A stretch of 21,929 nucleotides of DNA from a virus: the IMG/VR virus record IMGVR_UViG_3300013232_000807; one strand, 5' to 3'. A program made the translations under genes and the position numbers. Under the pieces are notes generated by a model. It saw only the letters and a program-made list of their open reading frames with translations. It was not told the DNA's origin and ran no database searches. How positions within the stretch are numbered: the first letter of the stretch is position 1; each line of letters opens with the position of its first letter. Positions 1,834-12,615 of the stretch are shown here, in pieces.

Positions 1834-1849
1834 GCTCGTGAGGTACACC

Positions 1850-2953
1850 ATGAGATACCCCCCACGCAAGCAGCAGCATCCAGAGGTCATGTCGAGCGGC
1901 GTCTTCGGGCCGCCCATCTACGAGGCCATGCGCGAGATCTTCGCCGAGACCGGCCTCTACTCCTCCGGGCAGATCCAGGGCCTGCTCAACGGACTGAGCA
2001 CCGGCGGGCAGCGCTTCGACACGGCCCAGGGGGCGATGTGCTTCGCCATCCTGGCCTGGCAGGACAACGGCAGGGCCGTGTACTTCCTGGAGGAGGGGCT
2101 GGCCGAGACGCTCACGAACACCGAGATGCCGATGGACCTCTTCGACCTGCCGGCCTGGGTGCCGGACAACGGGATGTACGTCGTGGTGCCGCCGCTGTTC
2201 ATGCTCGAGAACCCCGACACGAGCCTCCACCCGGTCGAGGGGTTCTACCTGGTGAAGGACATGATCGCGGTCCCGAAGGGCAAGGACGGACGCCCCGACT
2301 ACCGCACCACGGACCACCTTCTCGACGGGAAGCACACGGTGGTCAGCTCCGACGAGGGCTACGAGATGGTGCAGGGCATCACCTGCGTCGGGGTGGGCAA
2401 GCCCAAGGGCTACACCTGGAACATGCGCGAGATGCGCAACGACGCGCTGGTGGTCTTCCACCTGTGCCCGGGCATCCCGCTCGGGGAGGACACGAAGAAC
2501 GCGTTCGGGGGCATCGCCGAGCTCGAGCGCGTCGTCGTGAACCTGCTCTACGCCATGCAGAACACCACCAGCGTGGTGGCGGAGCGCCGGCAGCCCGAGC
2601 TCGGAGACAAGGCCGCCAAGCGCCGGCCGGCGAAGGCGCAGAAGCTCCTGGACGAGAGTGGGAAGACCCTCGACGCGTACACCGTGCTCAGCCTGAGCCG
2701 CACCGTGCGGAGCGCGCGCCCCTCGGAGGCTCGGGAGGGCACGGAGACGCCCGAGCGCAAGCTCAGGCACCCGAAGTACATCTCGGGGCACTTCCACCGG
2801 TACTGGGTGCGTGACGCGGCCAAGGAACGCGTCCTCGAGACGAAGGACGGGAAGAGCGGGAAGCTCTACCTGGTCGAGTACCTGCTCGCGCCCTACCTCC
2901 AGGGCGCCGACCTCCCCAAGCCACCGACGAAGACCGTCATCGTGAGGGCCTGA
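1850..2953 (+). CDS. hypothetical protein (367 aa)
   Basis: GAGG (1840-1843) lies 6 nt before the ATG at 1850, with an in-frame GTG at 1838 as alternative. A long GC3-rich ORF. The N-terminal GPPIYEAMREIF motif is shared with the 389 gene. Confidence 0.7.
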   Translation: MRYPPRKQQHPEVMSSGVFGPPIYEAMREIFAETGLYSSGQIQGLLNGLSTGGQRFDTAQGAMCFAILAWQDNGRAVYFLEEGLAETLTNTEMPMDLFDLPAWVPDNGMYVVVPPLFMLENPDTSLHPVEGFYLVKDMIAVPKGKDGRPDYRTTDHLLDGKHTVVSSDEGYEMVQGITCVGVGKPKGYTWNMREMRNDALVVFHLCPGIPLGEDTKNAFGGIAELERVVVNLLYAMQNTTSVVAERRQPELGDKAAKRRPAKAQKLLDESGKTLDAYTVLSLSRTVRSARPSEAREGTETPERKLRHPKYISGHFHRYWVRDAAKERVLETKDGKSGKLYLVEYLLAPYLQGADLPKPPTKTVIVRA

Positions 2954-8895: not shown

Positions 8896-9185
8896 GCCTC
8901 AGCACCTTCGAGAGGTGGTGGTTCCGGCGCACCGACGCAGAGCGAGACCTGCACGAGCTCCGTGAGTCGCCGAGCGAGCCGGCCGGCATCCGCTGCGGCA
9001 GCGAGTGGTGCACTGCGTTCGGCGACCCTGCAGCCGCCTGCGGGGACCACAAGGGCGTCTACGCTGGACTCGTGCACATGAACCGCGCCCAGCGCGCAGA
9101 AGCGCGGGACGCAGGGCAGCCCTACGAGCACGGGAGGCTCTGGTACGACCCGCGCTTCGACGAGAAGCCCGAAGGAGAGTCATGA
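8892..9185 (+). CDS. Cys-rich hypothetical protein (97 aa; alternative GTG start at 8862)
   Basis: GTGA overlap at 8892. Contains CGSEWCTAFGDPAAACGDH. Confidence 0.5.
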   Translation: MSLSTFERWWFRRTDAERDLHELRESPSEPAGIRCGSEWCTAFGDPAAACGDHKGVYAGLVHMNRAQRAEARDAGQPYEHGRLWYDPRFDEKPEGES

Positions 9186-9802
9186 ACGAGAAGCATCTCC
9201 GCGCACGCATCGACCAGTGCTTGCGGAACGCGGAACTCTCCCGCTGCCCTCGGCGGAAGTTCGGCGCCATGATCGTCGACCCGCACACTAACAGCATCAT
9301 CTCGGACGGCTACAACGGCCCTCCCCGGGGCGAAGAGGGCCTCTGCGAGGGCGACCACTGCGTGCGCGAGGGTCTCGTGCCCGCGGACTTCACCATCGAG
9401 CCGTACCCGGGCACCGCTGGGATGTACAAGACCCAGAACTCCAAGAACTGCCAGAACTTCGCCGGTACGCGCGCGGAGTGCCGTGCCTGGATCGACCGCA
9501 TGTGCGAGGCGCACCCGCCGATCGCCTCCGGTACGAGGATGGAGCTTGGGTGCCACCACGCGGAGGCGAACGTGCTGGGCAACGCACTTCGCCGCGGCGC
9601 GTCGGTCCTGGGGGCCTGGCTCATCGTGACGGGCGAGCCCTGCATGATGTGCGCGAAGTTCATCCACCACGCCGGCATCGCCAAGGTCTTCGTGGTGCAG
9701 GGTGGCTACGCCGGCGGGATCGCCGGCGTGGAGTACCTGAAGAGGTACCTGGTCGAGGTGGAGTACGTGGACGGCCCGGCCGACCCGAGGACTGCGTCGT
9801 GA
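9182..9802 (+). CDS. dCMP deaminase (cytidine/deoxycytidylate deaminase zinc-binding fold)
   Basis: ATGA overlap. Contains CHHAEANVL (H-A-E zinc/catalytic motif) and PCMMCAKFI (PCxxC zinc motif). Confidence 0.8.
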   Translation: MNEKHLRARIDQCLRNAELSRCPRRKFGAMIVDPHTNSIISDGYNGPPRGEEGLCEGDHCVREGLVPADFTIEPYPGTAGMYKTQNSKNCQNFAGTRAECRAWIDRMCEAHPPIASGTRMELGCHHAEANVLGNALRRGASVLGAWLIVTGEPCMMCAKFIHHAGIAKVFVVQGGYAGGIAGVEYLKRYLVEVEYVDGPADPRTAS

Positions 9803-10071
9803 AGACCATCGGTGCCATCACGGCCAAGCTCTACAAGTGCGTCCACTGCGGGCACGAAGCGGTGCAGAGCACCAACCACTACGGCGAGACCTACGGGCCC
9901 TGCGAGAACTTCCAGTGCGTCTCTCGGCGCCCGATGACCAACGCGACGTACCGCCCGCCGCGGCACGAGTGCCTGTCCCCGCTCCCCGAGGGATGGGGAC
10001 GCCCGGAGCCGTGGAAGGAAACGAACCTCGGTGAGTTCTTCGGGGTGGTCGGGGGCAAGGGCCCGTCGTGA
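9799..10071 (+). CDS. small zinc-ribbon protein (90 aa)
   Basis: GTGA overlap. Contains CVHCGHE...CENFQC. Confidence 0.55.
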   Translation: MKTIGAITAKLYKCVHCGHEAVQSTNHYGETYGPCENFQCVSRRPMTNATYRPPRHECLSPLPEGWGRPEPWKETNLGEFFGVVGGKGPS

Positions 10072-10403
10072 GTCCGGGCTGGTGGGTCTACATCCTCCGG
10101 TGCAGCGACGGCAGGATGTACGTCGGCACCTCCCCAGACCCAGAGCGGCGCCTGCGCCAGCACAACGGAGAACTGTCGGGCGGTGCCCGTTTTACCCAGA
10201 GACGGCGCCCGGTGGCGCTCATCTACGTCGAGTTCATCGGCGACAAGATCCTCGCCCTGCGCGTGGAGTGGCGCCTGAAACGCGCCTCTGCCGAGTGGAA
10301 GCGCGCGCTCATCCGCGGGGAACACGAAGGGCTGCGCCTCAGCGAGCTCAGCGTCATCCCGATCGCCAGGCGGCGCAGACGGCGCCGCCGCAAGACCTCC
10401 TGA
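10068..10403 (+). CDS. GIY-YIG nuclease family protein (YhbQ/UPF0213-like)
   Basis: GTGA overlap. WVYILRCSDGRMYVGTSPDPERRLRQHN matches the GIY-YIG core of the YhbQ family ([27 protein letters not shown]). Confidence 0.8.
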   Translation: MSPGWWVYILRCSDGRMYVGTSPDPERRLRQHNGELSGGARFTQRRRPVALIYVEFIGDKILALRVEWRLKRASAEWKRALIRGEHEGLRLSELSVIPIARRRRRRRRKTS

Positions 10404-10434: not shown

Positions 10435-11922
10435 ATGGACCTGCATTTCTCCGTCGATGACCCCGAGGTCGTCCACTACCTCACCAAGGCCAGCGACCAG
10501 GACCTCCTGCAGCGTGCGCGCACCGCGCTCCGCATCGGCGTGCTCGCCCTCAGCAGCGCCGAAGGCGTCATCGACGCCGAGGCCATCAAGCGCGAGGGTG
10601 CCGCCATCGTGGGCGGTGTCCGCTCGATGCTCGACGCCCACGCGTTCGAGGTGAGCCAGAAGGTCGGCAGCGCCCTGGGCGCGTACCTGGACCCCAAGAC
10701 CGGGGCCTTCCAGCAGGGCATCGAGCGGCTCGTGGCGCGCGAGGGGCTCGTGGTGAAGGACCTCGAGACGGCCATGCTCGCGCACGTCGGCGAGAGCGGC
10801 ACCGTGGCCCGCACGATCGCGCGCATGGTGGGCGAGGGCAGTCCCCTCCTCCGCCTGCTCGACCCCAAGCAGCGCGAGAGCCTCCTCGCGCAGGTGGAGG
10901 CCGTGCTCGGCAAGTCCCTCGAGGCGCAGCGCGCGGCCGTGGCGCAGGAGTTCAGCCTCGACCGCCCCGACTCCGCCCTGTCCCACCTCGTGCGCGAGAT
11001 CACGGAGCGCAACGCCTCCTTCAGCCGGGAGCTCTCGCTCGACCACGCGGACTCCGCGCTGTCTCGACTCGTGGGGCGCGTCGAGGAGGCCCAGCGCCTC
11101 ACCGTCGCCCAGTTCAGCCTGGACAACGCGGACAGCGGCATGACCCGCATGCGCGGGCTGATCGACGAGCACTTCCGCACGCTCGGAGAGGCGCAGCAGG
11201 CGTTCCAGACCAGCGTGCTGGAGATGCTGGTGCGCTTCGACGAGAAGAAGAAGGTCGCGGCGACCGGCACCCAGCACGGACAGGCGTTCGAGTACGCGCT
11301 GCTCACCACCCTGGAGGCCCTGGCGGAGGGCGCCGGCGAGCTCTTCGACGCCACGGGCATGACCACCGGCCTCGTGCGCAACTGCAAGGTCGGCGACGCG
11401 GTCATCACCATCGGGCCCGACCGGTTGGGTGCCGGGCAGAAGATCGTCTACGAGGCCAAGGAGGACCAGTCCTACGGGGACACCAAGGCCCTGCAGGAGA
11501 TCGAGCTCGGGATGAAGAACCGGGACGCGCGCGTCGGCGTCTTCGTGTTCAGCAAGCGCACGGCCCCCGAGGGGATGAAGCCGCTGCGGCGCATCGGCGA
11601 CGCCGTCCTGGTCGTGTGGGACCAGGAGGACGAGCGGTCCCACGTCTACCTCGAGGCGGCGCACGCCCTGGCCACGGCGCTCATCGCCAAGGCCGCGCGT
11701 GAGAAGGACAGCGTCCAGTTCGACTTCAGCAAGGTCGACACCGAGATCGCCGAGATCGAGAAGATGGTCGAGCGCGTGGCGAACATCGGGAAGAAGTGCG
11801 AGACCATCCGCTCCGCGGCGAACAGCATCGAGGAGGAGGTCCGCATCACGAGCGAGAAGATCGGGGGCAGCGTGCGGCGCCTGCGGGCGCAGGTCGCGAG
11901 CCTCAAGGTCGAGCTCGAGTAG
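10435..11922 (+). CDS. helical-repeat protein with C-terminal PD-(D/E)xK nuclease-like domain (495 aa)
   Basis: A long GC3-rich ORF. The C-terminal region reads AFEYALL...GDAVITIGPD-x11-YEAKED, fitting E...PD...ExK. The N-terminal half is alpha-helical and carries three 27-aa repeats. Confidence 0.75.
   Translation: MDLHFSVDDPEVVHYLTKASDQDLLQRARTALRIGVLALSSAEGVIDAEAIKREGAAIVGGVRSMLDAHAFEVSQKVGSALGAYLDPKTGAFQQGIERLVAREGLVVKDLETAMLAHVGESGTVARTIARMVGEGSPLLRLLDPKQRESLLAQVEAVLGKSLEAQRAAVAQEFSLDRPDSALSHLVREITERNASFSRELSLDHADSALSRLVGRVEEAQRLTVAQFSLDNADSGMTRMRGLIDEHFRTLGEAQQAFQTSVLEMLVRFDEKKKVAATGTQHGQAFEYALLTTLEALAEGAGELFDATGMTTGLVRNCKVGDAVITIGPDRLGAGQKIVYEAKEDQSYGDTKALQEIELGMKNRDARVGVFVFSKRTAPEGMKPLRRIGDAVLVVWDQEDERSHVYLEAAHALATALIAKAAREKDSVQFDFSKVDTEIAEIEKMVERVANIGKKCETIRSAANSIEEEVRITSEKIGGSVRRLRAQVASLKVELE
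10945..11163 (+). repeat. three in-frame tandem copies of an 81-nt (27-aa) unit inside the 10435 CDS
   Basis: The three units are QEFSLDRPDSALSHLVREI / RELSLDHADSALSRLVGRV / AQFSLDNADSGMTRMRGLI. At DNA level they read gagttcagcctcgaccgccccgactccgcc..., gagctctcgctcgaccacgcggactccgcg... and cagttcagcctggacaacgcggacagcggc.... Confidence 0.6.
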
Positions 11923-11923
11923 G

Positions 11924-12151
11924 TCAGGCGGAGCGCGCTCCCTCCAGCGGGGGAGTGCGCTCGTTAGCCCCTACCTCCTCGGTGGCCTCTTCCTCTTCTG
12001 TCTTCGGGGTGGAGGACTCAGCCGCGACGGAGCGCAGTCTGGTGGAGAGGCTCTTGGCGATGACGGGTGTGCACGCGGAGGCCGTGAAGGCGCCGAGTGC
12101 CTCTCCCACCGTCACCTGGCGTGCCAGGCTGTGCATGCGGTCGAACGACAT
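11924..12151 (-). CDS. small acidic hypothetical protein (75 aa), translationally coupled to 12151..12615
   Basis: ATG at 12151-12149 overlaps the TGA of the upstream minus-strand gene (TGATG). Mostly GC3-rich. Its 3' end overlaps the hairpin at 11931-11962, which lowers confidence. Confidence 0.35.
   Translation of the reverse strand: MSFDRMHSLARQVTVGEALGAFTASACTPVIAKSLSTRLRSVAAESSTPKTEEEEATEEVGANERTPPLEGARSA
11931..11969 (+). terminator. candidate (possibly bidirectional) terminator hairpin followed by TCGTTAGCC
   Basis: 12-bp stem GAGCGCGCTCCC / GGGAGTGCGCTC (one G-U pair) with loop TCCAGCGG, 9 nt after the stop at 11922. Confidence 0.5.
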
Positions 12152-12615
12152 CAGCGGCGCTCGGCCGGGGACTCGATGGCGGGGGGAGTGACACTCGGGA
12201 CGAACTTGTCGGCCAGGTACGAGACGCCCAGCAAGTTCAGGATGACCATCACGACTCCAAGGAGAAGCAGCTGAAGCGGCTGTGATGTCCATAGCCGATT
12301 CATCCACGCTTCGCGCATCCCGCGCTCTTCCTTGTCGCTTTCCTTCTTCGCCTTCGCATTCGCGACGTCGAAGGCGAGTCGGTCCTCTTCCACCTTCGCG
12401 ATCCGCGTCAGCGCGTTCGCCGCCGCACCGGCCGCAGCGGCCGCAGCCGTGGTCGCTTGCGTATTCTGGTCCACGGACTTCTCAACGGCCTCGAGACGGC
12501 CGCCAAGCCGCTCGAGGGCTCGTGTGGACTCGATCATCCACTCCTGAACAGGATCCATGAGGTCCCTCTCCTTCACTGCGGTAGGGCGGTCGTCGACTGG
12601 GTCAGTGGGCGGCAT
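12151..12615 (-). CDS. tail-anchored membrane protein (154 aa; Ala-rich, C-terminal TM helix)
   Basis: Minus-strand ATG at 12615-12613 is preceded by GAGG. The hydrophobic stretch QPLQLLLLGVVMVILNLLGVSYL lies near the C-terminus. Codon usage is less GC3-biased than in neighbouring genes. Confidence 0.6.
   Translation of the reverse strand: MPPTDPVDDRPTAVKERDLMDPVQEWMIESTRALERLGGRLEAVEKSVDQNTQATTAAAAAAGAAANALTRIAKVEEDRLAFDVANAKAKKESDKEERGMREAWMNRLWTSQPLQLLLLGVVMVILNLLGVSYLADKFVPSVTPPAIESPAERR

Follow-up and report, generated by a model that had tools for sequence, protein, structure and literature searches.

A predicted PD-(D/E)xK nuclease with tandem 27-residue helical repeats on a viral metagenome contig, and its bacterial and archaeal relatives

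The IMG/VR record IMGVR_UViG_3300013232_000807 is a viral metagenome contig of 21,929 bp, which we analyzed over its whole length (in the following, the window). We focus on the gene at positions 10435–11922 of its plus strand, a complete coding sequence for 495 residues with an ATG start and a TAG stop according to the list of open reading frames (ORFs) and their translations. Back to the preceding stop codon, there was no other in-frame start upstream of position 10435. The G+C content at third codon positions was 0.94, in agreement with the coding pattern of the other plus-strand genes of the window, and full-length homologues with up to 72% identity were found. The product, in the following called the target protein, is predicted to be an Mrr-like nuclease with helical repeats. 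It is acidic, with an isoelectric point of 5.4, and its highest Kyte-Doolittle mean over 19-residue stretches was 1.13; a transmembrane segment is therefore not indicated.

Conserved motifs were derived from an alignment of 51 family sequences (alignment A1), and structures were predicted with AlphaFold2 (AF2). The full-length AF2 model had a mean predicted local distance difference test score (pLDDT) of 75.8, with values around 90 for residues 280–420, and a predicted template modeling score (pTM) of 0.37 for the whole protein. A model of the domain alone (residues 265–433) reached a pLDDT of 89.9 and a pTM of 0.84. In both models, the PD-(D/E)xK nuclease core, i.e., residues 280–426 (positions 11272–11712, plus strand), has an α-β-β-β-α-β topology. 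It is made up of α1 (280–299), β1 (303–306), β2 (322–325), β3 (336–342), α2 (349–363), β4 (367–373), β5/6 (384–395) and α3 (400–426). Foldseek with the full model returned nuclease folds, with DdmD, McrC, MspJI, OkrAI and BamHI as top matches and EcoT38I, SPARDA and Cap4 further among them. From two structure searches, the nuclease domains of McrC and of Can2/Card1 emerged as the nearest solved folds. A PD-(D/E)xK core had been proposed in an earlier note made from the sequence alone, and the two models and two structure searches confirm it; the strings FEYALL, GDAVITIGPD, YEAKED and VGVFVFSK, on which the proposal was built, are all present in the target protein. The nuclease is not C-terminal, however, as had been assumed, since its core ends at about residue 426 and a helix of about 65 residues (431–494) follows.

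The active-site set is complete and near-invariant across relatives. Glu286 (codon GAG, positions 11290–11292, plus strand) lies on α1 in an HG..FE motif and is Glu in 250 of 261 relatives. Asp321 (GAC, 11395–11397, plus strand), the predicted catalytic aspartate in the motif CKVGD, is Asp in 259 of them. The (D/E)xK motif on β3 is formed by Glu340-Ala341-Lys342 (11452–11460, plus strand), with Glu in all 261 relatives and Lys in 260. Asp321 is located immediately before β2 and, judging from the strand register in the model, faces Glu340, which is the canonical geometry. Moreover, Lys318, Glu355, Asn362 and Arg363 are near-invariant in the same relatives, and we conclude from the conservation of these active-site and polar residues that there is selection on catalysis. 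YEAK had thus been rightly picked as the active-site motif, with Glu340 and Lys342 on β3. The aspartate of the GPD string, Asp329, had also been taken as catalytic, which is probably wrong: it is Asp or Glu in 254 of the 261 relatives and sits in the β2-β3 loop, whereas the near-invariant Asp321 stands at the start of β2.

Three repeats of 27 residues precede the nuclease in strict tandem, with an exact period of 81 nt over positions 10948–11190. Repeat 1 (residues 172–198, 10948–11028, plus strand) reads EFSLDRPDSALSHLVREITERNASFSR and opens with EFSLDRPDSALSHLV, repeat 2 (199–225, 11029–11109, plus strand) reads ELSLDHADSALSRLVGRVEEAQRLTVA and opens with ELSLDHADSALSRLV, and repeat 3 (226–252, 11110–11190, plus strand) reads QFSLDNADSGMTRMRGLIDEHFRTLGE and opens with QFSLDNADSGMTRMR. 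A hidden Markov model (HMM) of the repeat, built from family members, found them with i-Evalues of 2.3e-11, 1.3e-10 and 1e-7, respectively. At least three [FL]SLD motifs did not occur in any of 20,000 shuffles of the target protein. The three in-frame copies had been described in the earlier note and are found again at residues 172–252; it had also not recognized the repeat as a named domain, and indeed no model in Pfam, PHROGs, NCBIfam or PADLOC matches it. At the nucleotide level, the copies share just 53–58% pairwise identity, and Tandem Repeats Finder detected no 81-nt array in the DNA. We therefore regard the repeat as old and kept at the protein level, and not as the product of a recent duplication.

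Among 265 relatives, the repeat HMM found three copies in 139 and four copies in 85. Spacings were either 27 residues (270 pairs) or 38 residues (205 pairs), so that the repeat copy number varies by whole units. The usual bacterial spacing is 38/27 or 38/27/27, and the closest relatives of the target protein (54–72% identity) have 27/27. In the AF2 model, the FSLDxxxS segment is the non-helical loop of a helix-loop repeat unit, and the helix of repeat 3 extends into a long helix (residues 235–276) that leads toward the nuclease. As for short known motifs, the FSLD loops were considered as EF-hand, clamp-binding or single-stranded DNA-binding protein (SSB) tail motifs and rejected, because the consensus, judged by eye, does not fit.

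The N-terminal domain, residues 1–171 (positions 10435–10947, plus strand), is all-helical by the AF2 model and carries conserved motifs in alignment A1, i.e., ALRIGVLAL...G.ID, Y(F/L)DP..G.F and SPL...L.P. Its AF2 helices span residues 10–172 at a pLDDT of about 60–84, which bears out the helical N-terminal half postulated before. No match to the domain was found in Pfam, NCBIfam, PADLOC or PDB sequences; by hhalign, it is also conserved among archaeal homologues. The C-terminal tail (residues 427–495, 11713–11919, plus strand) is mostly the single long helix 431–494, with an AF2 pLDDT of about 66–80. This helix, too, is conserved in archaeal homologues. The only matches of the tail were weak ones to coiled coils, among them HA2 and trimeric adhesins, and it is probably a coiled-coil oligomerization element. 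In the family architecture, an N-terminal helical domain is followed by three to four helix-loop repeats of the type FSLDxxxSALSRL, from which a long helix connects to the nuclease; a C-terminal helix of about 65 residues completes the protein. Full-length collinear homology across all four modules is present in the family. This is a new variant upon a known catalytic fold: the catalytic domain is ordinary, the remainder of the protein is new.

By sequence, the nearest named relative of the target protein appears to be the Mrr_cat domain, in a borderline match. Pfam yielded a single weak hit, to Mrr_cat over residues 299–382 (20.0 bits, E = 7.7e-4), and 14 of the 51 aligned members match this domain at E ≤ 0.01, the best with E = 9.9e-6. 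Scans of the target protein against PHROGs, PADLOC and NCBIfam gave nothing significant; these three collections hold no model of the family, and Pfam offers only the borderline Mrr_cat. In contrast to Mrr_cat enzymes (PF04471; EcoKMrr and AF1548, PDB 1y88), the target protein lacks the Mrr_N winged-helix DNA-binding domain, which was not matched in any of the 51 members. In its place there are the helical domain of about 170 residues, the FSLD repeats and the C-terminal helix.

The solved nucleases closest in fold also differ in their partners and sensors. McrC, the nuclease subunit of McrBC (PDB 6hz4, 6ut7; with CoCoNuT variants), acts with a GTPase, whereas the target protein stands alone. 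No gene for a McrB/CnuB GTPase was found in the window, in phage-like relatives or among the most frequent families flanking bacterial homologues, and membership in McrBC/CoCoNuT was ruled out because there is no GTPase partner nearby. Compared with the effectors Can2/Card1 of type III CRISPR systems and Cap4 of CBASS, the target protein has no CARF or SAVED ligand-sensing domain, there are no cyclase or CRISPR genes near it, and its regulatory part is all-helical. A helical N-terminus with an Mrr domain occurs in giant-virus proteins, i.e., A0A1C9C4X3 of Heterosigma akashiwo virus 01 and E3T5I3 of CroV, the latter named 'Restriction endonuclease type IV Mrr domain-containing protein'. In Foldseek against BFVD, they span most of the model, with 499 and 317 columns and E = 5.4e-7 and 4.2e-4, respectively; these matches are weak, with TM-scores of about 0.2 and 13–14% identity.

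The family is large. In an exhaustive profile search, the number of clusters (at 50% identity) was 3,312 with E ≤ 1e-3 and 762 with E ≤ 1e-30, and nearly all of the best matches were 440–670 residues long. A word-indexed search gave 960 matches; the best 120 of these 960 were almost all full-length with 34–72% identity, and their source names were all "hypothetical" or a spurious coiled-coil label. We found no described family of this kind in the literature. When one genome per species was scanned with two peptide patterns, 246 relatives were detected in 185,579 species genomes. Most of them belong to Planctomycetota, and the others to Gamma-, Alpha- and Betaproteobacteria, Acidobacteriota, Chloroflexota, Myxococcota, Spirochaetes and Latescibacterota.

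A tblastn search against plasmids revealed distant homologues on haloarchaeal and Methanomethylovorans megaplasmids, two of them annotated "restriction endonuclease". Two archaeal homologues aligned full-length to the family profile, with hhalign probabilities of 99.4% and 99.6% and E = 1e-21 and 5e-24, respectively; both have fewer repeats or none. The M. hollandica protein WP_015313854.1 (hhalign probability to the family 99.4%) scores 27.6 bits against Mrr_cat, which is above the cut-off, and so ties the family to Mrr_cat transitively. No match was found by tblastn of the target protein against the INPHARED phages.

In the window, the gene lies 31 nt downstream of an ORF at positions 10068–10403 (plus strand) for a mini GIY-YIG nuclease (111 residues, Pfam GIY-YIG E = 2.6e-17) with an Arg-rich tail, RRRRRRRRK, and a candidate partner of the target protein. 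The position directly behind a GIY-YIG nuclease, as the earlier note had it, is thus confirmed. The nearest database relatives of this small enzyme are GIY-YIG proteins of Rhizobium phages with genomes of about 150–207 kb, at about 41–42% identity. The closest homologues of the target protein (70–72% identity) are syntenic and encoded on IMG/VR viral genomes of 182,777 and 188,230 bp; other members with 27/27 spacing (54–62% identity) are found on phage-like contigs of small, co-directional genes.

In these relatives, the homologue stands at the end of an early operon for DNA and nucleotide metabolism, usually right behind the mini GIY-YIG gene. A GIY-YIG gene lies directly upstream of the homologue on the contigs L087, L088, L091 and L099, in L099 with a 4-nt overlap. 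It is adjacent in five of seven phage-like contexts, the window included, and one gene away in a sixth (L097). Automatic gene calls on related contigs had skipped the GIY-YIG gene and called a small overlapping ORF instead; the GIY-YIG gene is at positions 9554–9850 in L087, 9374–9673 in L088 and 9557–9841 in L091. The relatives' contigs also encode NT5C, ThyX, SNase and Exo_endo_phos proteins, and the window itself encodes SSB, a dCMP deaminase, gyrase B (GyrB), a VanY-type lysin and an HNH protein.

The target gene had been described as closing its operon, and this holds: directly after the stop codon, there is a G+C-rich hairpin with a 14-bp stem (positions 11931–11962), and the conserved gene that comes next is read from the minus strand. 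The hairpin has a folding energy of −33.1 kcal/mol (z = −3.89), and none of 200 shuffled sequences was equally stable; it is probably a terminator between convergent units. The minus-strand unit at 11924–12615 is wedged between two plus-strand operons and converges on the target gene at the hairpin. Its ORF at 12151–12615 (minus strand) has counterparts in L087 and L088 with 47–52% identity.

On balance, we lean toward reading the target protein as a soluble, metal-dependent DNA endonuclease with a PD-(D/E)xK fold of the Mrr/McrC-like branch. That it is an active metal-dependent DNase is, as predicted from model and conservation, very likely. Probably, the helical parts, i.e., the long helices and the repeats, mediate oligomerization or regulation. 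The long helices 235–276 and 431–494 might pair within or between subunits and form a stalk that oligomerizes the enzyme, with the repeats as a helical arm whose length would be adjustable by 27-residue steps. Such an arm could determine where the N-terminal domain, which would be a module for sensing or for binding a partner, stands with respect to the nuclease head, and so keep cleavage regulated. The phage enzyme and the GIY-YIG enzyme would jointly cut DNA other than that of the phage, with the host chromosome at an early stage of infection as the most likely target, and host-DNA breakdown would feed the neighboring nucleotide-salvage genes. T4 EndoII, itself a GIY-YIG enzyme, acting with a second nuclease may serve as an analogy for such two-enzyme action. 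We propose degradation of host DNA by the phage copy only tentatively and consider it possible rather than probable.

Several observations weigh against this reading. The Mrr_cat score of the target protein, 20.0 bits, stays below the Pfam cut-off of 21. Family profiles match nothing in the PDB by sequence: when PDB sequences were searched by phmmer with the target protein, or with profiles of the whole family or of the nuclease domain alone, only coiled-coil or chance matches came up. Comparison of the family by hhalign with E. coli Mrr (0.3% probability) and E. coli McrC (nothing) showed no similarity, which counts weakly because single-sequence templates give low power. The N-terminal half of the AF2 model is poorly supported (pLDDT 43–84), and the picture of stalk and arm is therefore conjecture. 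As to the partner, no GIY-YIG gene was found beside the homologue in the phage-like contig L098 or in any bacterial locus fetched. Because the contigs are related and syntenic, the adjacency elsewhere may reflect shared ancestry and not function. Finally, bacterial homologues cannot be degraders of host DNA, so that such a role in the phage would need to be a co-option.

The proteins might instead be nucleases of defense or exclusion, i.e., a single-gene, restriction-like or abortive-infection system in which an invader would be sensed by the N-terminal domain and the repeats, with the nuclease as effector. Competing phages or other mobile elements would then be excluded by the phage copy, and host DNA would not be its target. 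We consider this somewhat unlikely. The nearest solved folds, McrC, Can2, Card1, DdmD, MspJI and Cap4, are defense nucleases, and a stand-alone gene with a variable module at its sensor side would suit such a system, as would a species distribution that is sparse yet extends across many phyla. Some homologues also lie within restriction or defense islands. The homologue L003 adjoins type I HsdS/HsdR, a resolvase and a transposase. The P0016 gene is flanked on one side by a type I restriction-modification operon with an AAA_15/DUF3696 ATPase, and on the other by a PLD-like protein, a helicase and TerB. A third case is the M. hollandica plasmid pMETHO01 (L096, 544–7490), where the homologue stands directly behind genes for a DNA methyltransferase and a DEAD/DEAH helicase, with a RelE/ParE toxin gene after it; this arrangement may be a restriction-like operon that uses the nuclease family of the target protein.

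Such contexts are set against the bacterial loci at large. The bacterial members are stand-alone genes without a conserved neighbor in the loci examined: when ORFs from 80 bacterial loci were clustered all against all, no neighbor cluster occurred in more than nine of the loci, and in a Pfam scan of 111 genes that directly flank 68 bacterial homologues, no family occurred more than six times. None of the 25 most frequent Pfam families in these flanking genes is typical of defense or restriction. Recurrent neighbors are clade-specific and of the housekeeping kind, i.e., an AAA_22 ATPase, a HemN-like protein, RsmE and HtrA, with loci in Pirellulales and Parvularculaceae being clade-conserved housekeeping ones (HemN-like, RsmE, HtrA). 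An AddA-like helicase-nuclease recurs beside the homologue in Sedimenticola. The individually annotated contexts were mixed, some with housekeeping genes such as DnaB, TrpC and ferritin, and RNA polymerase also occurs among the other loci. The phage gene, for its part, is found inside an early DNA-metabolism operon and not in an island of accessory genes.

Also, neither the target protein nor three homologues had a significant PADLOC match; the best E-values for homologues, 0.0038–0.067, came from insignificant coiled-coil matches over the helical region. The earlier note had been reminded of the defense effectors Shedu and Lamassu. Neither was recovered, as Pfam scans showed no DUF4263 and PADLOC nothing significant for Shedu in these proteins, and for Lamassu there was no PADLOC match and no SMC-like partner in the window or as a conserved neighbor in the 68 bacterial loci.

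Alternatively, the family could comprise RmuC-like nucleases of DNA maintenance, i.e., structure-specific endonucleases on a helical scaffold that would process intermediates of recombination or replication, among them hairpins, cruciforms and stalled forks. Certain bacterial clades would inherit them vertically, and large phages would have borrowed them to replicate and recombine their own DNA. RmuC (PF02646) and DUF2130 (PF09903) resemble the target protein in general design, with a PD-(D/E)xK domain joined to a long helical or coiled-coil region in the product of a stand-alone bacterial gene, and one member of the family has a weak DUF2130 match. Both families are part of the PD-(D/E)xK census (PMC3424549), and RmuC is also the domain that the Shield defense system has co-opted (PMC10270631). 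Chromosomal neighborhoods with clade-wise conservation and housekeeping genes among them, in one genome DnaB right beside the homologue, would fit a maintenance role, as would the shared locus of the phage gene with SSB and gyrase B.

Yet the relationship to RmuC that had been considered before did not hold up. None of the 51 members matches Pfam RmuC at E ≤ 0.01, and hhalign to E. coli RmuC agrees with this negative result at 0.2% probability. The RmuC family has an N-terminal membrane anchor, which the target protein lacks. Moreover, unlike in RmuC, the nuclease of the target protein is internal with a long helix after it, and FSLD repeats were found only in the family of the target protein. 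The resemblance is one of architecture, i.e., a helical region plus a nuclease, and not of family. A core repair function would also be expected in more than the 246 of 185,579 species genomes in which the two peptide patterns found a match. We consider a maintenance role distinctly unlikely. That the nuclease-like domain is catalytically dead and the protein a structural or coiled-coil adaptor is highly improbable: inactive PD-(D/E)xK domains are known from other families, and helices make up over half of the protein and give coiled-coil-like matches, but the four canonical active-site residues are retained and near-invariant in 261 relatives, as are Lys318, Glu355, Asn362 and Arg363.

Some further genes of the window deserve mention. 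The ORF at positions 13413–16019 (plus strand, 868 residues) encodes a major-vault-protein 'shoulder' domain (E = 1.1e-22) and an SPFH/Band-7 domain, and a vault-shoulder protein is unusual in a phage. It is absent from the syntenic contigs L087, L088 and L091; a homologue of 865 residues is present in the phage-like L097. In the phage database, its only relatives were three metagenomic 'huge phage' records of 462–735 kb, with 36–38% identity. For the dCMP/cytidine deaminase (9005–9802, plus strand), a profile of 102 positions is stretched over residues 69–231, which points to a large insertion in the fold; the gene has no counterpart in syntenic relatives.

The ORF at 1838–2953 (plus strand, 371 residues) has no Pfam match. 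Its counterpart in the 182-kb relative, 79% identical, carries a precomputed AcrVA2-like (PF26125) match, so the ORF may be anti-CRISPR-like. The ORF at 16031–16543 (plus strand, 170 residues; 53% identity to its counterpart in L087) matches weakly the cyclic-phosphodiesterase (2H-type) domain of fungal tRNA ligase (E = 1.2e-4) and may be an RNA-repair or 2′,3′-cyclic-phosphate enzyme. At the end of the contig, positions 21884–21929 (CTGTCTCTTATACACATCTGACGCTGCCGACGA) are a 46-base Illumina Nextera transposase adapter that was left in place. When phage records were searched by Megablast with the whole window, this adapter was the only part that matched, at the ends of many unrelated records.

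With its roughly 3,300 clusters, the family extends over Planctomycetota, Proteobacteria, Acidobacteriota, Chloroflexota, Myxococcota, archaeal plasmids and large phages, under generic or "hypothetical" names. Speculatively, and with a low expectation of being right, one may see in it a widespread, unrecognized class of stand-alone nucleases in which 27-residue helix-loop units (FSLDxxxSALSRL), arrayed in variable copy number, would serve as an adjustable arm between a dedicated helical sensor domain and an Mrr/McrC-like head. Large phages would have taken over the module from bacteria and joined it to a mini GIY-YIG enzyme, as a two-nuclease device against host or rival DNA. If this reading is true, immunity or counter-immunity would gain a new single-gene mechanism, one that is missing from current defense catalogues. 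As a defense nuclease or phage weapon, the protein would represent a new single-gene system, borrowed by phages and paired with GIY-YIG; as a repair nuclease, it would be an analogue of RmuC for lineages without RmuC. The delimited, sensor-like N-terminal domain and the variation of the repeats by whole units make structure-function work straightforward. The chemistry of the enzyme is predictable; the size of the family, its modular repeats and the phage-specific pairing with GIY-YIG make its characterization worthwhile, and whichever role holds, the family merits a profile model of its own.

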